Numbered from the stretch's first letter, positions 3,501-28,979 are shown. The stretch is DNA of 55,136 nt from a virus (IMGVR_UViG_3300020441_000006:1-55136); one strand, 5' to 3'. Numbers and translations are program-made. Notes: generated by a model from the letters alone, not told the origin.

Positions 3501-3713
3501 ATGGACATTGAAGATTTTTTAGATAAAGATAAAATAACTTTAGAAGAAGTTGTATCTAGAGTTATTTGTTTTAATAATGTAAAAGATAGATGTAAGTGTT
3601 TATCACCCTTAGATTGTAAAGATCATGGGGATTATAATATGTCGGCTTTATCGACAATACTTTTACTGCAAAATGTTCGATATGAAGCAGTAAAAAAATC
3701 GGAGATTAATTAA
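3501..3713 (+). CDS. Hypothetical Cys-containing protein
   Basis: Fills gap, TAATG-coupled to portal. Confidence 0.6.
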   Translation: MDIEDFLDKDKITLEEVVSRVICFNNVKDRCKCLSPLDCKDHGDYNMSALSTILLLQNVRYEAVKKSEIN

Positions 3714-6145
3714 TGGCTTCAACAGAGAGACCTTTTGGCCCCGGTGGAGAAGAAGAAACCGCTTTAGAAATAGAGCAACTTCCAGCTAATGGGCAAGTAC
3801 CTACAGACCTTTTAGAAGTTATTGAATCAGGTTCTTTTGAAACTGAGGATGGTGGTATAGAGTTTGGTCAAGAAGAAGTTATTCAGGAAATGAACACAGT
3901 TCCATTTGATGCTAATTTAGCTGATTATATGGAAGAAGACCAACTTCAAAATATATCTAATGATTTGTTAGGTGGTATAGAAGAAGATAAATCTTCACGA
4001 AAAGGTTGGGAAGAGGCTTATGAAAAAGGTATTAAATTACTTGGAACTTTAGATTCAGAAAGGTCAGAACCATTTGAGGGTGCCTCAAATGTTATTCATC
4101 CTATGTTAGCAGAAAGCGCTACTAAGTTTCAGGCTATGGCATATAAAGAATTATTACCGCCAGGCGGTCCAGTACGAACAATGATTATGGGAGATTCTAA
4201 TCCTGAAGTAGATGCTCAAGCAGATCGTGTTCAAGAATTTATGAATTATCAAATCACTTATGAAATGGAAGAATATGATCCTGAAATGGACCAGCTCCTT
4301 TACTACCTTCCATTAAGTGGTTCAGCTTTTAAAAAAGTTTATTACGATCCAACAATGGCAAGACCATGCGCTCGTTTTGTGCATGCTGAAAAATTAATTG
4401 TTCCTTATAACACTACGGACTTAGTATCTGCTTCACGCATAACACATCAACTTAGTATGAATGGTAACGATGTTCGTAAAATGCAATTATCTGGTGTTTA
4501 TAAAGATGTAGATTTACAAAGCGGTGGTTATGTTAGCACTAGCGAAGTTGAAGAAGAAATAGCAAAACAAGAAGGAATAGAAAGAACATCATTTGATAAT
4601 GATGTTTTTGAGCTTTATGAAGTTCATACATTATTAGATTTAGAAGGTTTTGAAGACTCTAGTAATGGCGAGGTAACAGGTATTAAAGTTCCTTACATAG
4701 TTACCCTTGATGCTGTTAACGGTAAAGTTTTATCTATTAGAAGAAATTATGCTGAAAGCGATCCTTTAAAAAAGCCAAGACAATATTTTGTTCATTATAA
4801 ATTTTTACCCGGATTAGGTTTTTATGGTTTTGGATTACCGCATATTATTGGTGGTGTTTCCCGTTCAGCAACTTCTATTCTCCGACAATTAATTGACGCT
4901 GGAACATTAGCAAATTTACCAGCTGGTTTTAAAGCTAGAGGTATTCGTATTCGCGATGACGATGTTCCTTTGCAGCCGGGAGAATTTAGAGATGTAGATG
5001 CTCCTGGAGGTTCATTGCAAAATTCATTGATCCCTCTCCCTTTCAAAGAGCCTTCAGGAACTTTGTTTAATTTATTAAAACTTTTAGAAGATAGTGGTAA
5101 AAATTTTGCGGCTATTGCAGATCATCCTTATCAACAAATGGATAAGAATGCTCCAGTCGGAACAACATTAGCAAATCTTGAACACGGAACGCGTGTTATG
5201 TCTGCTATCCATAAAAGATTACATTATGCACAAAAAGTAGAATTTAAACTACTAGGTGTTTTGTTTAGAGATTATTTACCACCATCTTATCCTTACATGG
5301 TAAATAATGGTCAATCGGAAGTAAAACAAACTGACTTTGATGACAGAGTTGATATTCTTCCAGTTAGCGATCCTAATATTCATTCATTGGCACAGCGTAT
5401 AGCTGTAGCACAAACTGAACTACAAATAGTTCAATCCAATCCTCAAATTCATGGACCTACTGGGCTATGGGAAGCGTACCGTAGAATGTACGAAGCCATA
5501 GGCGTAAAGAATGTGGAGCAGATCCTGCCTCCTCCTCAACAACCTCAACCGACCGATCCAGCACTCGAAAATGCTGCGGCATTGCAAGGCGGTCAATTGC
5601 AGGCTTTTGCTCCACAAGACCATGATGCTCACATAAAGGCACATACTGCTGCATTAGCTACACCTACTATTGCAACGAATCCACAAGTAGCGTCTGCTTT
5701 ACAAGCTCATATCTATCAGCACTTCTCATTTAAAGCGAAAGCTATGGCCTTAGCAGAATTGCAAAATAGTGCTGAATATCAACAATTAATGCAACAGTCT
5801 GGTGGCCAAATACCTCCTGAGCAACAGCAAGCTTTACAAGAAAAATTAGAAGAAGAAGCAGCGCTTGATATTGCTGAAATGACAGAATTATTTACTCAAA
5901 CTGTCGAACAAGATTTACAAATAGATCCACTTGTTCAATTAAGACAAAAAGAGTTAGAGTTAAAAGAAATGGATCAAGAACGAAAAGGGCAAGAATTTCA
6001 ACAACGTTTACTACATGATATAAGATCTGATGATGCTGATATTCAGGTTGATAAAGAAAGATTGCGATTGCAAGAAAAAAACATTGACGAAAGAACAGAA
6101 ATTGCCCAAGAAAGAATAGACGTTCAAAGAGAAAAACAACGATAG
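3713..6145 (+). CDS. Portal protein (P22-like, long helical C-terminus)
   Basis: 810 aa after terL; PFEGASNVIHP, GSAFKKVYYD, DAGTLANLPAGFK motifs; Q/E-rich barrel. Confidence 0.92.
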   Translation: MASTERPFGPGGEEETALEIEQLPANGQVPTDLLEVIESGSFETEDGGIEFGQEEVIQEMNTVPFDANLADYMEEDQLQNISNDLLGGIEEDKSSRKGWEEAYEKGIKLLGTLDSERSEPFEGASNVIHPMLAESATKFQAMAYKELLPPGGPVRTMIMGDSNPEVDAQADRVQEFMNYQITYEMEEYDPEMDQLLYYLPLSGSAFKKVYYDPTMARPCARFVHAEKLIVPYNTTDLVSASRITHQLSMNGNDVRKMQLSGVYKDVDLQSGGYVSTSEVEEEIAKQEGIERTSFDNDVFELYEVHTLLDLEGFEDSSNGEVTGIKVPYIVTLDAVNGKVLSIRRNYAESDPLKKPRQYFVHYKFLPGLGFYGFGLPHIIGGVSRSATSILRQLIDAGTLANLPAGFKARGIRIRDDDVPLQPGEFRDVDAPGGSLQNSLIPLPFKEPSGTLFNLLKLLEDSGKNFAAIADHPYQQMDKNAPVGTTLANLEHGTRVMSAIHKRLHYAQKVEFKLLGVLFRDYLPPSYPYMVNNGQSEVKQTDFDDRVDILPVSDPNIHSLAQRIAVAQTELQIVQSNPQIHGPTGLWEAYRRMYEAIGVKNVEQILPPPQQPQPTDPALENAAALQGGQLQAFAPQDHDAHIKAHTAALATPTIATNPQVASALQAHIYQHFSFKAKAMALAELQNSAEYQQLMQQSGGQIPPEQQQALQEKLEEEAALDIAEMTELFTQTVEQDLQIDPLVQLRQKELELKEMDQERKGQEFQQRLLHDIRSDDADIQVDKERLRLQEKNIDERTEIAQERIDVQREKQR

Positions 6146-6166: not shown

Positions 6167-7117
6167 ATGTTACCAAGAGCATTTTGGCGCGACTTATCTG
6201 TAATTGCACTATCACTAATAGTTGTTAGTTCTATTGTTATAGCTGAAGACAGCAACATAACAAATACGACTACGACGACTTCTACTGTTACTAGCAATAA
6301 TACCAATACAAATAATAATACCAATGTGAATCAAAGCACTAGCACAAACACGAATACTAATTTTAATACTAACAATACGACAATTTCTCAGACCAACAAT
6401 TCGACATCGAACAATACAAATGTGAACACATCAACGGTGACGAGTACGATTAATCAAACACAAAATGTTAACAACACTTCTTTGATAACTAACAACTCTA
6501 CATCAGAAAATACCAACTTGAATACCAATAATTCAACAAATGTTTCGACAAATACTAACAACAATAACAATGTTAGTTCATCAACTTCTGATGTCACAAC
6601 GAGCAACCAGAATGTAAATCAAAATACATCAACAAATGTGAACACAAATAATTCCACAAGCCAAAGTTCACAAAAAGTGACACAAAGAGTTAAGTCGCCG
6701 CCTCCTTCAGCGGTGGCTCCATCCATTATGTCTTATTCCCAGGACCTTTGTACTTCGGGGGCCTCATCGGCAGTCCAGACACAATTCTTTGGTATATCTA
6801 CCGGGAGAAGTGTACGGGACGAAAACTGCGAACGCTTGAAACTTTCCAAAGGTCTCTATGATATGGGGATGAAGGTCGCAGCCGTTGCATTACTTTGTGA
6901 GGATGCTCGCGTGTGGAGATCTATGATGCAAGCTGGCAGCCCATGCCCGTATAAAGGTAAGATAGGTGAAGAAGCAAAAATTGCATGGCAAGAAAATCCA
7001 CAAGACAGACCAGACTGGGACGAAGTAAAAAAAGAACTTACTGGTTATGAAATAAAAGCATATAGAAAAGGCGACTTCTGTAAGAAGTATCCTAAGCACA
7101 AGATATGTTCAGGCTAA
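6167..7117 (+). CDS. Exported protein with Asn/Thr/Ser low-complexity region and Cys-rich C-terminal domain
   Basis: Signal peptide, ~145 aa N/T/S/V tract, PPPSAVAP linker, six Cys. Confidence 0.85.
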   Translation: MLPRAFWRDLSVIALSLIVVSSIVIAEDSNITNTTTTTSTVTSNNTNTNNNTNVNQSTSTNTNTNFNTNNTTISQTNNSTSNNTNVNTSTVTSTINQTQNVNNTSLITNNSTSENTNLNTNNSTNVSTNTNNNNNVSSSTSDVTTSNQNVNQNTSTNVNTNNSTSQSSQKVTQRVKSPPPSAVAPSIMSYSQDLCTSGASSAVQTQFFGISTGRSVRDENCERLKLSKGLYDMGMKVAAVALLCEDARVWRSMMQAGSPCPYKGKIGEEAKIAWQENPQDRPDWDEVKKELTGYEIKAYRKGDFCKKYPKHKICSG

Positions 7118-9030
7118 TCACACTATTATTTTTAACGACATCTGCATGGGCGACTGATCCTGTATTCACAATTGGTTCTGATCCTATTATTGATATAACT
7201 GGAACCGGCACTGGATTAAGCCTTGGAGACGATTCGATGTCAGGCCTTAAAAATATCGGTTTCGACTTCACCTTCTATGATCAGACCTTCTCTCAAGTAA
7301 ATATATCTATGAACGGCTTCTTTACCTTCCAGTCAAATTTTTCTGTGCCTAGAGTAAGAAATTACAGATCGGAAACGCTCCCAGCTACTTCATTTAACTA
7401 CTCTGTCTTTCCTGCATGGTCTGATTATATTAGAAGGTCTAGTGGCAATCAATCTCCATACATACAAACATTTGGACAAACAGCAGATACAGATCAATAC
7501 TTTGTTATTATGTGGGACAATGTTTCTGAGTATAGTAATGGGTTAAAGAGTACCTTCCAAGCTATACTATACGAAACGACTAATGAAATTTCTTTTCGCT
7601 ATGATGAGCTGCGTATCCAGAATCACGATTTGACCATCGGAATCCAAGGTAACAACGAAGCCGTGACGTATATGCGGTATGAAGACACCAATAATACAAC
7701 TTTTATTGAGACAGATGATTTTAGTGTAAGTACAGCTATTGATGAGTCTTTTAGTAACCTTTCTTCTGAGTGTTTAATAGATGCAGATTTTAGTGAATTA
7801 TGTGATGTGTATGATTTAACAAATGATTTTGAAAGTGATAACTTTCTATACGGAGTAGATGAGGATATAATATTTGGTTATGACGAAGATGAAATGTTTT
7901 ATGGATACAATATGGGAGAGGATGAATTTGCAGACACCTCTACGATTGTTCTTGGAGTTGTTGGGGATAGGGGTTCTTTTAATTATAATGACGGTGATAT
8001 TTTTATCACTGATGATATTGACTTTGATTCGTTCATAGATGTAAACTTAGAAGATGATACATTATTTATACATCTTGATAGCGAGTACGATATTGAGTTC
8101 CTTGATCCATTGCCTGATTTGGAAGAAATCGACTTTTTAGAAATAGTCGAAATAGAAGAAGAAGAATTTATCCAACATTTTGAAGAAGTACAAGAAAGAA
8201 TGGAAGAAGATTTTCTTGTGTTTATGGAAGAAGAAATTTCTGAAGAAGAATTTGTTGAGGTTATAGAAGAGTTATTTAACGAAGAAGAAGCTATAGAAGA
8301 AGAGGAAGAGGCATTAGACGAAACCATTAATGAAATAACTCCAGAAGAAGTTGAAGAAGAACAAGAAGAAAAAGGAGCTACGAGAAGAAATATAGTAACA
8401 ACTAGAAATCTTGTTTCTAATCTTGTTTCTAGTGTTGTAAGGGGAAGTTACACTTCATCTAACAGTAACAGTGGTAATAATACAAGTTCCGTAAATGTTT
8501 CTAATACATCAATGGCAAATGTTAATTCACCGACAGTTTCAAACCAAGTAGCAGATAATCAGGTTCAAACTAATACAGTTTTACAATCTATTACAATTAT
8601 GCCTATGCCTGGAGTAGACAATACTCCTTCTGTTGTTATGGCCGAAGTTCAAGTAACAACTATGGAGAATCAGATAGAAAGTGTTACTTCTTCTGTTATG
8701 ACTGCATCGGAAGCAGACCAAGTAGCCGAACAAATTGTTTCTCAAAATATACAAGCTCAACAAGAAGAGAACCAAAGAAGTCAAAACGAATCAGGTGAAT
8801 ATAATGTGCAAGGACAAGCTAACCTTTTAGCTTTTATGGGTTATTCAGCCGGATTTAATGATTACCAACAAATGAATATACCAGATGCAGCTAACTGGTA
8901 CGAACCAAAAATAATATATGCAAATGTTATTTTAGATGATAATATTGCCGGGTATTATAATTTAGTTGGAACTAACTTAGACCAACAAGCTAACTTAATA
9001 CAAACACAAAATATGGAGTTTTTTAGATGA
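7105..9030 (+). CDS. Exported acidic protein with NIDO-like N-terminal domain
   Basis: Signal peptide ending AWA; GDD..IGFDFTFY..NISMNG..TFQAIL pattern; long D/E tract. Confidence 0.8.
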   Translation: MFRLITLLFLTTSAWATDPVFTIGSDPIIDITGTGTGLSLGDDSMSGLKNIGFDFTFYDQTFSQVNISMNGFFTFQSNFSVPRVRNYRSETLPATSFNYSVFPAWSDYIRRSSGNQSPYIQTFGQTADTDQYFVIMWDNVSEYSNGLKSTFQAILYETTNEISFRYDELRIQNHDLTIGIQGNNEAVTYMRYEDTNNTTFIETDDFSVSTAIDESFSNLSSECLIDADFSELCDVYDLTNDFESDNFLYGVDEDIIFGYDEDEMFYGYNMGEDEFADTSTIVLGVVGDRGSFNYNDGDIFITDDIDFDSFIDVNLEDDTLFIHLDSEYDIEFLDPLPDLEEIDFLEIVEIEEEEFIQHFEEVQERMEEDFLVFMEEEISEEEFVEVIEELFNEEEAIEEEEEALDETINEITPEEVEEEQEEKGATRRNIVTTRNLVSNLVSSVVRGSYTSSNSNSGNNTSSVNVSNTSMANVNSPTVSNQVADNQVQTNTVLQSITIMPMPGVDNTPSVVMAEVQVTTMENQIESVTSSVMTASEADQVAEQIVSQNIQAQQEENQRSQNESGEYNVQGQANLLAFMGYSAGFNDYQQMNIPDAANWYEPKIIYANVILDDNIAGYYNLVGTNLDQQANLIQTQNMEFFR

Positions 9031-9206
9031 CAGAAAGAACATACAAAACAAATTTAAAAACTTTTCAATATCCTTTACTTCACAAAGAAAAAGGTTTGGA
9101 TAAAAAATATAGAGGTTTTGATTATCCTTCAGTAACAGTTCATGAAGTAAGTTCTCAACTAGGTAGATACAGAGGTATAGAACATCAGGTAACTGTAAGG
9201 TCTTAA
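9027..9206 (+). CDS. Small protein with two YRG motifs (59 aa)
   Basis: Not in ORF track; ATGA overlap with upstream gene, abuts next ATG; KYRGFDY and RYRGIEH. Confidence 0.7.
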   Translation: MTERTYKTNLKTFQYPLLHKEKGLDKKYRGFDYPSVTVHEVSSQLGRYRGIEHQVTVRS

Positions 9207-9446
9207 ATGTCTGAAGAAGTTAAAGTAGTACAAGTAGAAAAGAAGTCTTGGTATAACAACGCTGAAGGCTTTGACAAGTGGAGAGTTTTTCCACGAATAT
9301 TAATAACATTATATGGCATTATGTTTTATAAAACTTGTGATTGGTTTATGACATTACCCGATCCAACTAATTCACAATCAGCTTTTGTATCTGTAATTGT
9401 AGGTGCTGGAGCGGCATGGTTTGGTTTGTATATAGGAAAAAAATAG
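9207..9446 (+). CDS. Small 2-TM membrane protein, holin-like
   Basis: DKWRVFPR, WFMTLPDPT, GAGAAWFGLY; two TM segments. Confidence 0.75.
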   Translation: MSEEVKVVQVEKKSWYNNAEGFDKWRVFPRILITLYGIMFYKTCDWFMTLPDPTNSQSAFVSVIVGAGAAWFGLYIGKK

Positions 9447-9455
9447 GAGGACAAT

Positions 9456-9701
9456 ATGAAAAATTTATTACCTAAACTTCAACAGTACATCACCATAGTA
9501 GGGGTGATCACGGCAATAGGCGGAGGTTTCTACACCTGGGGCCAGTTTAATTTGCGTCTTGATAATATTGAAAAAAGAAAATTTAAGAGTGTAAATATTG
9601 CGCCATTAGAAACGCAAGTAGATGGTATTGAAAAAAGATTAGATAGACTTGAAGGTAGAATGGATAAGATGGGCAATAACGATAATCCGTTAGCACAATA
9701 G
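9456..9701 (+). CDS. Membrane-anchored coiled-coil protein
   Basis: SD ggagg; N-terminal TM, heptads, NPLAQ end. Confidence 0.8.
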   Translation: MKNLLPKLQQYITIVGVITAIGGGFYTWGQFNLRLDNIEKRKFKSVNIAPLETQVDGIEKRLDRLEGRMDKMGNNDNPLAQ

Positions 9702-9710
9702 GAGATTAAA

Positions 9711-9899
9711 ATGGCAAAAGATAAAAAATGGATTCAAAAAGCTAATTTAAAAGAAGGAGCTTTTACTAAAAAAGCAAAGAAAGCTGGTTATGGTGTTCAA
9801 ACTTACGCCAGTAGAGTTTTAAAAAATCCTGAAAATTTTGACAAAAAAACTGTTCGTCAAGCACAATTAGCCAGAACATTCAAAAAAATGTCAAAGTAA
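9711..9899 (+). CDS. Small basic protein
   Basis: SD ggag; KKWIQKA..GAF..LARTFKKM. Confidence 0.8.
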   Translation: MAKDKKWIQKANLKEGAFTKKAKKAGYGVQTYASRVLKNPENFDKKTVRQAQLARTFKKMSK

Positions 9900-10184
9900 A
9901 TGGCTAAAAATATACGAAGAACAACTGGTAAAGGTGGTAATTACCGTCCTACAAAAAAAGGTGCGGGGATGACACAAAAAGGTGTTAAAGCTTATCGTAA
10001 GAAAAACCCGGGTTCTAAGTTAAAAACAGCAGTAACTGGAAAAGTTAAAAAAGGAAGTAAGGCAGCTAAAAGAAGAAAATCTTATTGCGCAAGATCATTA
10101 GGTCAATTAAAAAGAAGTAGTGCTAAAACAAGAAAAAATCCTAACTCTCGTATTAGGCAAGCTCGCAGAAGATGGAAATGTTAA
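9900..10184 (+). CDS. Small highly basic protein
   Basis: GMTQKG..NPGSKLK..RRKSYCARS..RRRWKC. Confidence 0.8.
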   Translation: MAKNIRRTTGKGGNYRPTKKGAGMTQKGVKAYRKKNPGSKLKTAVTGKVKKGSKAAKRRKSYCARSLGQLKRSSAKTRKNPNSRIRQARRRWKC

Positions 10185-10198
10185 CTAAGGAGAAATAA

Positions 10199-10333
10199 AT
10201 GAGTTTAGTAAAAAATATTAATAGAAGAAAAAAAGCTGGGACAAGTCGTTCTAAAAAGAACAGCACTATCTCTAAAAAAGCATACGCAGACATGAAGTCT
10301 GGTTGGAAGAAAAAGAAAAAGAAAAAGAAATAA
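10199..10333 (+). CDS. Small basic protein with poly-Lys tail (44 aa)
   Basis: Not in ORF track; SD aaggag; MSLVKNINRRKKAG...GW followed by 8 Lys. Confidence 0.75.
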   Translation: MSLVKNINRRKKAGTSRSKKNSTISKKAYADMKSGWKKKKKKKK

Positions 10334-10515: not shown

Positions 10516-10713
10516 ATGCACAGTGTTGAATTAGTACAATTTATTTTGAAGATCATAAGGGAAAGAGCTTCAGAATTATCAGATCAAATAACAACTGGAT
10601 CTGTAGAAGATTGGAACATTTATCAAAACATTGTCGGTCAACTGCAATCACTAGGTTTTGTCGAGTCTGAAATCCAATCGTTAATGAATAGATTGGACGG
10701 AGAAGATGGCTAA
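10516..10713 (+). CDS. Small helical protein upstream of GroES
   Basis: GSVEDWNIYQNIVGQLQSL pattern; overlaps groES start. Confidence 0.8.
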   Translation: MHSVELVQFILKIIRERASELSDQITTGSVEDWNIYQNIVGQLQSLGFVESEIQSLMNRLDGEDG

Positions 10714-27842: not shown

Positions 27843-28979
27843 ATGGCGTGGTATGATTTTATTCTAGATACTGGTAAACAATTTTTTAAACCTCAGAATT
27901 TAATGAGTTCTTTAGGCACCGCAGGCATTATGCAATTGTTTGGTGGTGATAGTGATGATTTTAAAAGAAACTTTTTATTAAGTAATTTATCACGATCTAT
28001 GAATCCTTTATCATTAAGCGCTAAAGATAAGCAAAAAGCTTTTGCAAAATTAAGCCCTAAAGAAAAACAAGAATATACAAATTTAGCTCGTTCTGGAAAT
28101 TTAAGAAAAGAAGACTTTCAAACTTTTAAAGATTTAGGAGTTATTAAGCCTGGCGCATTTAATACTCATGAAGATTATTTACAATACTTTCAATCGAAAC
28201 AAGCTCCTTCAGCTGGTTTACCTGATTTTACTCCCCCAGAAGGTCCAAAACTAATGCGTACATCTATGGGTGGTGGATCTAATCAACCTTCCCAACAAAT
28301 AAGTACAACTTCTTATAAAGGTTTTAATGATCCAGCTGGTATATTGAGTTTACCTCAATCTCAAGGAACAAGTCGCGGTGGCGCACCGAATTATGAAATA
28401 ACAGAAGGTCCGGGAGGAACACAACGGTATTACGATCCAAAGAGCGGAAAAGAATTTATTCTTGGTGGTGATGGAAAAGTAAGCATGATAAGTCAAGGCA
28501 GTCCTCAAGCCCCCGGCTTTGGACAAGGAGGATTTAATTTTAATCAAGGTATTGGTGGATTGAATCAAGGATTCTTTGGACCACATCTTCAAAACTTTGA
28601 TCAGATTATGATGAATAAACTTTTATTAGAGGCTATTAATCCTGATTATTACAAGAAAAGAGATTTTGCAGCGGAGGCTGAAGAAAGAGATAAGAGATTA
28701 AGAAGAGAATTTAGAGCAGAAAGTTTAGATCCAATGATGTCAGGTTTTGCACGCAACATGCGTCCACGAGGATATAGCTCTGGTGGTATCACTGATTTAA
28801 CAGACGGTGGAGAATCGGCTGGCCCCGGAACAGGAACTTCGGATTCTATCCCGGCTTTATTATCTGATGGAGAATTTGTTATGACAGCTGAGGCGGTAAG
28901 AAATATGGGTAATGGTTCACGAGAAAAAGGAACTCGTAAAATGTATAATTTAATGAATAGTTTAGAAAGAAAAGCATAA
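27843..28979 (+). CDS. Putative internal virion (ejection/pilot) protein
   Basis: GPGTGTSDSIPALLSDGEFVMTA motif at C-terminus. Confidence 0.7.
   Translation: MAWYDFILDTGKQFFKPQNLMSSLGTAGIMQLFGGDSDDFKRNFLLSNLSRSMNPLSLSAKDKQKAFAKLSPKEKQEYTNLARSGNLRKEDFQTFKDLGVIKPGAFNTHEDYLQYFQSKQAPSAGLPDFTPPEGPKLMRTSMGGGSNQPSQQISTTSYKGFNDPAGILSLPQSQGTSRGGAPNYEITEGPGGTQRYYDPKSGKEFILGGDGKVSMISQGSPQAPGFGQGGFNFNQGIGGLNQGFFGPHLQNFDQIMMNKLLLEAINPDYYKKRDFAAEAEERDKRLRREFRAESLDPMMSGFARNMRPRGYSSGGITDLTDGGESAGPGTGTSDSIPALLSDGEFVMTAEAVRNMGNGSREKGTRKMYNLMNSLERKA

Follow-up and report, generated by a model that had tools for sequence, protein, structure and literature searches.

A mobile gene cassette of marine phages encoding predicted exported and membrane-anchored proteins, possibly an envelope module of the lysis cassette

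Results

The window analysed here is the whole IMG/VR virus record IMGVR_UViG_3300020441_000006 (55,136 bases, estimated to be 94% complete), and the subject is a cassette of five genes, A to E, at positions 6,167 to 9,701. A sequence-only reading had placed five tightly packed genes between the portal and head genes, and these open reading frames (ORFs) are present there, all on the + strand; A and B overlap by 13 nucleotides (nt), B and C by 4 nt, and the remaining gaps are of 0 to 9 nt. Gene order in the window runs TerL, an ORF of 134 amino acids (aa), portal, A, B, C, D and E, followed by two small basic proteins (one of them DUF6321), a 65-aa protein, GroES, a scaffold-like protein and the major head protein. 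The portal (3713-6145; SU10_portal and PHROG portal) shares 48% identity with its counterpart in Pelagibacter phage HTVC023P, which among cultured phages is the nearest relative of the window phage; the further nearest portals are those of HTVC027P, uncultured HTVC023P-type genomes and roseophages. Scans of Pfam, PHROGs and NCBIfam matched none of A to E to a characterised family. The features of the cassette are listed below.

6167-7117, + strand: gene A, 316 aa (ORF call, hydropathy, composition, Cys positions)
6167-6247, + strand: predicted signal peptide of A, aa 1-27, probably cleaved (hydropathy)
6248-6706, + strand: N/T/S-rich low-complexity linker of A, aa 28-180 (composition)
6707-7114, + strand: conserved Cys-containing helical domain of A, aa 181-316 (alignment, AlphaFold2 [AF2] model)
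7105-9030, + strand: gene B, 641 aa (ORF call)
B aa 1-16, + strand: predicted signal peptide (hydropathy, AxA-type site)
7192-7704, + strand: NIDO-like beta-sandwich of B, about aa 30-200 (AF2, transitive homology)
B Cys 223 and Cys 233, + strand: C-x9-C pair (Cys positions)
7810-8400, + strand: acidic tract of B, aa 236-432 (composition)
8401-8694, + strand: S/V/N/T-rich tract of B, aa 433-530 (composition)
8695-9027, + strand: conserved aromatic-rich C-terminal region of B, about aa 531-641 (alignments A3 and A5)
9027-9206, + strand: gene C, 59 aa with two YRG motifs, an accessory insert outside the conserved core
9207-9446, + strand: gene D, 79-aa small membrane protein with a KK end (phrog_10198)
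9456-9701, + strand: gene E, 81-aa membrane-anchored helical protein
9489-9545, + strand: Gly-rich N-terminal membrane anchor of E, about aa 12-30 (hydropathy)
9684-9692, + strand: invariant C-terminal N-P-L of E, aa 77-79 (alignment A4)

Signal peptides and transmembrane (TM) segments were called from hydropathy and AxA-type sites only, plus conservation across families. Among distinct full-length sequences, the N-terminal hydrophobic segment is kept in 76 of the 80 A proteins, in 70 of the 73 B proteins and in 57 of the 58 E proteins.

Judged by hydropathy, protein A has the signal peptide that had been described (hydrophobic aa 9-27, ending VIA|ED), together with the N/T/S tract and the six Cys residues (195, 221, 244, 260, 305 and 314). 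The tract is 153 residues long and Asn-rich, N, T and S making up 116 of its residues (76%). A matches phrog_20531 (1e-11), and its domain belongs to a family of 5334 protein clusters. In the Cys-domain alignment (A2), C15, C41, C64 and C80 are invariant; the invariant residues are mostly Cys, Gly and Pro, and no Glu is among them. The AF2 model is helical, with a predicted local distance difference test score (pLDDT) of 68. It matched no PDB fold at an E value of 1e-3 or below, and the A2 profile matched no PDB sequence; BFVD returned uncharacterised sequence relatives only and the ESM Atlas unnamed viral clusters only. Cultured phages HTVC023P, HTVC033P, HTVC202P, Mosig and CRP-207 carry the domain at about 50% identity, and HTVC027P was not among the A-like tblastn matches. 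In two of the loci fetched from databases, which are given L numbers here (L160 and L164), the A-like protein carries at its end a hydrophobic, Gly-rich stretch (…GGLALLLLLL) resembling a C-terminal sorting or anchor signal. In L170 to L182, lone A-like genes encode a signal sequence, an N/G/S-rich tract, the Cys domain and a Pro-rich tail; an example is L172 6290-7381, from a complete Hyphomonadaceae chromosome.

Protein B begins with a textbook-looking signal sequence (MFRLITLLFLTTSAWA|TD, that is, …SAWA|TD), again judged by hydropathy, and carries the long acidic tract noticed earlier: residues 236-432 (197 aa) are 38% D/E and 2.5% K/R. The Cys motif had been given as C-x8-C; its actual spacing is C-x9-C. 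The conserved region at about aa 531-641 was absent from the earlier description. The proposed NIDO-like domain stands by way of relatives only, as B itself has no Pfam match at an E value of 1 or below. B has 344 close homologues, and its N-domain is found in 4923 representative proteins, often as 3 to 14 tandem copies in giant proteins. When 10 phmmer relatives of the domain were scanned, 3 scored above the cut-off of Pfam NIDO (PF06119; 124.5, 59 and 46.8 bits), 1 fell just below it (23.3 bits) and 6 had no match; the NIDO-matched stretches overlap the B-like stretches of these relatives. The N-domain is thus homologous to bacterial repeats that pass the NIDO threshold, although B itself lies below it, and it is modelled as a beta-sandwich (pLDDT 80-90). 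The function of NIDO is unknown, and therefore the likeness means an extracytoplasmic binding domain and no more. The remainder of the B model lies below pLDDT 50, with the C-terminal region poorly folded (pLDDT 40-70). Full-length B gave no PDB match, a search that is uninformative because the mean pLDDT is only 50, and the A5 profile gave one chance-level match among PDB sequences. The middle gene of the cultured SAR11 phages has the same layout as B (signal sequence, globular head, acidic tract and C-terminal region), and the C-terminal region of HTVC023P gp46 shares a '(F/W)YEPK-IY' motif with B. The suggestion that the N-domains of these proteins are carbohydrate-binding modules had no Pfam support at an E value of 0.01 or below; 'carbohydrate binding' comes only from the GenBank label of HTVC033P gp45.

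Protein E had been read as a TM-anchored coiled coil, which agrees with its hydrophobic anchor and a helical remainder that weakly matches coiled-coil families. Y26, R34, E39, N77, P78 and L79 are invariant in alignment A4. Family members, of 77 to 213 aa overall, consist of the anchor, an invariant R…E, a stalk of variable length and the NPL end. E is homologous to HTVC033P gp44, HTVC202P gp26, the Mosig 132-aa protein and CRP-207 gp73 (hhalign 99.1%, E 8e-19), and also to HTVC023P gp48. Gp73 of Roseobacter phage CRP-207 (L146 3292-3873) is labelled 'putative lysozyme' in GenBank, and its sequence has an N-terminal TM segment, a long coiled coil and a …DNPL end; it is an E-like protein, and the label looks wrong. 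The arrangement in CRP-207 is A-like, gp74, E-like and 2-TM protein.

The two remaining genes are small. C contains two YRG motifs, as had been noticed; its only Pfam hit was DUF4278 below threshold (15.2 bits against a cut-off of 25.3, E 0.029), and it had no match in PHROGs. D matches the unannotated phrog_10198 (4.3e-24; alignment A6). It had been called a 2-TM protein; one TM segment is clear (aa 59-77) and alone passes the standard hydropathy threshold, and the second, upstream stretch is more weakly hydrophobic. In relatives D lies before A, after E or on the opposite strand. It is unrelated to the hol3 and hol164 membrane-protein families met below, and identity with HTVC033P gp49 or HTVC023P gp33 was ruled out (hhalign 0.2%).

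The cassette was followed in relatives from two sources: a search with B gave 64 IMG/VR loci, and the A Cys-domain alignment gave the best 80 of more than 587 IMG/VR stretches. After loci sharing the last 300 nt of gene A were merged, 90 were distinct, 70 of them with at least 3 kb downstream of A. A B-family or at least 400-aa ORF directly follows A in 70 of the 70 loci and an E-family gene is present in 69, so that the co-occurrence of A, B and E expected by the earlier reading holds in nearly every locus. The exception, L123, carries a 158-aa TM protein with an NPL end in place of the E-family gene. D is found in 48 of the 70 loci and C in 8. These counts make A, B and E the conserved core, D a frequent companion and C a rare insert, and the proposed five-gene unit thus shrinks to a triad. 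The remoter phage-like contigs retain the order A, large ORF and E-like or NPL-ending protein. The triad is present in podoviruses and a myovirus of SAR11; the cultured SAR11 phages that carry it are HTVC023P, HTVC033P, HTVC202P and Mosig. In L164 (8270-9730), and also in L158 and L165, three additional small exported proteins (about 165, 125 and 140 aa; no Pfam match) lie between the B-like and E-like genes.

The cassette also changes backbone and position. The A to E proteins of L010 are 94, 84, 93, 100 and 74% identical to those of the window, whereas its primase/helicase, Cas4-like nuclease, Sak4-like protein and 158-aa protein are 50, 54, 43 and 41% identical; that is, 74-100% for the cassette versus 41-54% for the replication genes shared with the L010-type backbone. 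Window-type relatives have the cassette after the portal. In L010, L013, L015, L017, L024, L027 and L062 it closes the late block after giant ORFs and abuts an opposite-strand primase/helicase. It lies before TerL in HTVC202P and near the genome end in the myovirus Mosig. On these comparisons the cassette moves between phage backbones as a unit.

Lysis genes were sought in the window itself. One candidate holin was found.

910-1389, + strand: candidate holin, a 159-aa membrane protein upstream of TerL (phrog_6637, 6.7e-27; weak match to holin phrog_3427, E 8e-4)

This ORF, the sole holin candidate in the window, has no Pfam match. Its identity to a 152-aa Mosig protein, encoded immediately before the Mosig A-like gene, is 40%, and it is related to a family of 155-164-aa proteins found beside a phrog_7 endolysin (hhalign 85%, E 6e-6). 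The earlier reading had recognised no canonical endolysin or spanin in the window, and this holds for the searches made here. Among 60 window ORFs compared with PHROGs, none matched an endolysin or spanin family, the only holin annotation being the weak phrog_3427. Six-frame searches, which used a loose first filter and can miss divergent enzymes, found Amidase_2, Phage_lysozyme, SLT, M23, M15_4 and NlpC/P60 in none of five records (the window and four relatives) and M15_3, the seventh Pfam family, in none of three (the window and two relatives). The window is one of three searched records with a completeness of 90% or more, the others being from two relatives. No recognisable endolysin was found in the records behind L009 and L027. 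A lipobox regular expression applied in six frames to ORFs of at least 25 aa found none in the whole window. Within one ORF only, 27843-28979 (378 aa), a C-terminal piece of about 45 residues (aa 310-360) matches tape-measure and endolysin PHROGs (1e-6 to 1e-8).

In relatives, the neighbours of the triad include lysis genes. HTVC033P has the order 71-aa TM protein, Amidase_2 (71 bits), 128-aa 2-TM protein, two small genes, A-like, B-like and E-like, with the Amidase_2 about 0.9 kb upstream of the A-like gp46. HTVC023P has A-like, B-like, a 51-aa protein and E-like gp48, with Peptidase_M15_3 (55 bits) starting from the next base. In L153 an M15_3 gene (73 bits) lies two genes upstream of A. A phrog_7 endolysin follows E by 1 to 5 genes in L061/L066, L064/L065, L130 and L148 (2.3e-57 in L064). 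The first three of these types share the order A, B, E, in some cases a 71-aa TM protein, a 159-164-aa membrane protein and then the endolysin, directly or past an 80-aa ORF; in L148 the order is A, B, E, 73-aa TM protein, Lipase_3, 67-aa lipobox ORF, 155-aa membrane protein (hol164) and endolysin. Directly upstream of A, a member of the hol164-type membrane-protein superfamily is found in Mosig, L119, L134 and L151, and L034-type loci have a member of this same holin-like superfamily within about 2 kb; in the window, the superfamily is represented by ORF 910-1389. Three unrelated small membrane-protein families thus adjoin the triad: D, hol3/hol164 and gp49/phrog_2524. The suggestion that the 164-aa holin-like family is Pfam GTA_holin_3TM had no Pfam support at an E value of 0.01 or below.

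Further observations concern these neighbourhoods. Two distant module versions have a class-3 lipase gene (Lipase_3) shortly after the E-like gene (L148 9944-10678, 63 bits; L164 10675-11382, 84 bits). In L140 the E-like gene (9698-10042) is overlapped at its 3' end by a 67-aa lipobox ORF (10017-10220; …LIGC|S), an arrangement that has the layout of overlapped i-/o-spanin pairs and is seen in that one lineage only. Lipobox ORFs near E occur in L140 and L148 only.

Discussion

Our results suggest, tentatively, that the lysis cassette includes a mobile envelope module made up of A, B and E, usually accompanied by D, which probably serves the periplasm or outer-membrane step. The finding of three unrelated hydrolase families and three unrelated membrane-protein families beside one triad is the signature of a lysis cassette in which holins and endolysins have been replaced non-orthologously. 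The lysis-cassette position, which the window lacks, is present in HTVC023P, HTVC033P, L061/L066, L064/L065, L130, L148 and L153. The earlier proposal of an exported or membrane complex with a role in egress, shielding or adhesion is supported in its premise, the unit being co-inherited, mobile, predicted to be exported and of no known family. Its egress option gains support from context because the triad of relatives abuts holin-like genes and three unrelated endolysin types, and we regard egress, tentatively, as the best supported of the three.

How such a module might act can be sketched from the predicted architecture. E would be anchored in the inner membrane, with its helical stalk reaching into the periplasm and NPL at the end, while A and B would be exported by Sec. 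A would offer its small helical domain, stabilised by disulfides, at the end of a long and flexible N/T/S linker. B would combine an exchangeable lectin-like N-domain, which is NIDO-like in this phage, with the long polyacidic tract and, at the C-terminus, the conserved aromatic-rich region. Acting together, A, B and E would link or attack the outer envelope layers after the holin fires, and D may be a holin or holin partner. In lambda, the lysis defect of Rz/Rz1 mutants shows itself only where the outer membrane is stabilised by divalent cations at millimolar concentration, and seawater supplies such cations. The outer-layer step would be essential in Mg/Ca-rich seawater; elsewhere it is done by Rz/Rz1-type spanins, which appear absent from this phage. 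A more specific version is possible but doubtful: A, B and E would be a novel, non-lipoprotein, three-part device for breaching the outer envelope that replaces spanins in abundant marine phages, in which the E stalk captures A and B, and the swappable lectin-like head and polyacidic tract of B strip or bridge the cation-stabilised outer membrane; the device may also contribute a wall-degrading activity, not recognised so far, in lineages such as that of the window. Prediction of a complex between E (residues 31-81), the domain of A and the C-terminal region of B scored 0.00, was run without controls and says nothing either way.

The closest known systems resemble the cassette in part. As in two-component spanins (lambda Rz/Rz1, T7 gp18.5/18.7), E has on hydropathy heuristics the architecture of an i-spanin (the segment at aa 12-30, a helical remainder and a conserved end, in 57 of 58 E for the anchor), the module of relatives lies in or beside holin-endolysin cassettes, and it would fill an otherwise empty outer-membrane step. 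However, the window has no lipoprotein partner, and the partners would instead be Sec-exported non-lipoproteins of 316 and 641 aa; E is also short (81 aa, or 77-213 aa in relatives) and resembles no spanin family in sequence. Lacking both a lipoprotein partner and a family match, the module falls outside the canonical spanins; it may be an undescribed envelope module of the lysis cassette that works like a spanin. Mycobacteriophage LysB and other accessory lysis proteins attack the outermost envelope layer. Like them, the module would belong to the lysis cassette and be aimed at an outer layer, and in two distant versions it has a Lipase_3 gene beside E, but A, B and E have no recognised hydrolase fold or motif and the window has no lipase. 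D may be holin-like, by size and topology only. Like class II holins and pinholins it is small, ends in basic residues after hydrophobic segments close to the C-terminus, and is tightly linked to a lysis-associated module, but it has no holin family match and was never directly beside an endolysin in the loci examined.

Several observations weigh against a place in lysis. The evidence for it is genomic context throughout, and the loci, having been collected through their similarity to A or B, are a biased and partly related sample. The cassette of the window lies among head-morphogenesis genes, 4.8 kb from the sole holin-like candidate. With the hidden Markov models used, a recognised lysin was found within the fetched flanks in only 5 of the 70 distinct loci (the lysin neighbours of L148, L153 and HTVC023P were added after this count), and 13 of the 70 lack both D and any hol3/hol164 gene in the vicinity. 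A and B carry AxA-type sites and not lipoboxes. Neither E nor the longer E-like proteins match a spanin family in Pfam, PHROGs or NCBIfam. Homology of the cultured pelagiphage B-like proteins to B is not significant (hhalign 6%; tblastn E 0.92). The 'putative lysozyme' of CRP-207 was dropped as evidence of lysis, gp73 being E-like. Lone A-like genes, 39-46% identical and without B or E, are found in chromosomes of Hyphomonadaceae, Caulobacteraceae and Micropepsaceae. Because these occupy ordinary chromosomal contexts, the A domain would have a role outside lysis; it appears to be a general periplasmic module and not one confined to lysis, and the lone genes suggest a cellular origin or such a general periplasmic role for the domain.

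Among other explanations, superinfection exclusion or receptor masking survives best, and we consider it unlikely. The exported proteins would coat or block an envelope component, protecting the cell or sparing progeny from adsorption to debris; in variants of this idea, the lectin-like domain of B would sit on a surface glycan or A would inhibit the wall-piercing enzyme of incoming phages. The predicted exported and inner-membrane locations would fit, as would the movement of the cassette between phages that probably have hosts in common. The N-domain of the middle protein also varies by lineage (NIDO-like here, and unrelated in HTVC023P, HTVC033P, HTVC202P and Mosig), as might be anticipated for a part that binds the host surface. 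A is a small helical disulfide domain, which we take to be loosely reminiscent of T4 Spackle; however, the fold search with A returned neither Spackle nor any other solved structure. The cassette is placed in late operons of the structural strand and next to lysis genes rather than in an early or lysogeny region, and PHROGs and NCBIfam showed no likeness to known exclusion proteins (PADLOC was not searched).

It is improbable that the Cys domain of A or the C-terminal region of B is a new Sec-exported cell-wall hydrolase that replaces the endolysin, with E and D as its membrane regulators. Such an enzyme would account for the lack of a recognisable endolysin in the window and in two further records at least 90% complete, and three of the five cultured carriers (Mosig, HTVC202P and CRP-207) lack Amidase_2 and Phage_lysozyme, the two families searched there. 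However, divergent enzymes can be missed by a six-frame family search, HTVC023P, HTVC033P and the L061-type contigs have both the triad and a classical hydrolase, no Glu is invariant in the A domain, and the model of the B C-terminal region is poorly folded.

Rather less probable still is a role in cell-surface adhesion or aggregation, in which the Asn-rich tract of A and the NIDO-like and acidic domains of B would alter stickiness outside the cell, as proposed for pelagiphage curli (type VIII secretion system [T8SS]). NIDO-like domains are repeated in tandem in giant, presumably surface proteins, one of them with cadherin domains; A has its Asn-rich low-complexity tract; and PMC9599517 provides a precedent for exported accessory modules in HTVC023P-type phages. 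No component for outer-membrane translocation was found, however: the window has no CsgG, and no scan gave a secretin or usher. The inner-membrane anchor of E points to a periplasmic assembly, and adhesion leaves the association with holins and endolysins unexplained.

That these are ordinary virion or assembly proteins, with hydrophobic N-termini that are not export signals, is very improbable: the cassette does lie between portal and head genes in the window and is co-oriented with structural genes in all loci, but its position varies (it can follow the portal, close the late block or precede TerL), A and B conserve their hydrophobic N-termini and the AxA-type sites there, the conservation of the Cys pattern suggests that the compartment is oxidising, and lone A-like genes exist in cells.

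An envelope module of the lysis cassette can be set beside the curli/T8SS module, which according to PMC9599517 is an exported module of HTVC023P-type phages and of myovirus pelagiphages. Both are multigene, exported (by prediction here), directed to the envelope, spread across podoviruses and myoviruses and apparently transferred. They differ in that A to E include no CsgF, FecR, kinase or cyclase families and that CsgG (PF03783) gave no six-frame match in the window, the control being positive in 4 of 14 genomes; the passages of PMC9599517 consulted do not describe the present cassette. Curli genes and a glycosyl hydrolase are reported for phage Melnitz (PMC9004378), lysis genes of HMO-2011-type phages are mentioned in passing (PMC9038755) and temporal classes are given for HTVC027P genes (PMC12753301). 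The literature found on pelagiphage lysis genes, HTVC023P, HTVC033P and phage NIDO domains does not describe the module, and the literature found holds no description of how these phages open a Gram-negative envelope in cation-rich seawater.

The module is common, with 5334 clusters in the A-domain family and more than 587 IMG/VR stretches, and it is exchanged between backbones. If it is a lysis component, it would be a third solution to the outer-membrane step beside spanins and disruptin-type peptides; annotators could also use it to recognise lysis cassettes in marine viromes, most of whose lysis genes escape recognition. As a system for exclusion or surface remodelling, it would instead bear on the competition of phages for the ocean's most abundant host. 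The module is directly testable either way because four cultured SAR11 phages carry the triad.

Additional observations

Signals of transcription in the window were sought by several means. A sigma-70 promoter scan gave 19 sites against 29.7 in shuffles, and terminator-like matches fell inside genes; neither is informative. Short contigs identical to parts of A, B and E were found in four metatranscriptomic runs from four studies, at shares of 0.05 to 0.11. These RNA-library contigs are not usable as proof of transcription, as DNA was possibly present and the shares are small. Unrelated short RNA-library contigs gave a depth of 8768 at window positions 8299-8445, the GAA-rich part that encodes the acidic tract of B, against less than 10 elsewhere; this peak is a mapping artefact and relevant to abundance estimates.

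Between the cassette and GroES, at 9711-10184 and 10516-10713, the window encodes a very basic 62-aa protein (phrog_20603), the equally small and very basic 94-aa DUF6321 protein and the conserved 65-aa protein. Comparable basic proteins follow the module in CRP-207 and HTVC023P, and the small basic proteins downstream of the cassette may be packaged DNA-binding or internal proteins.

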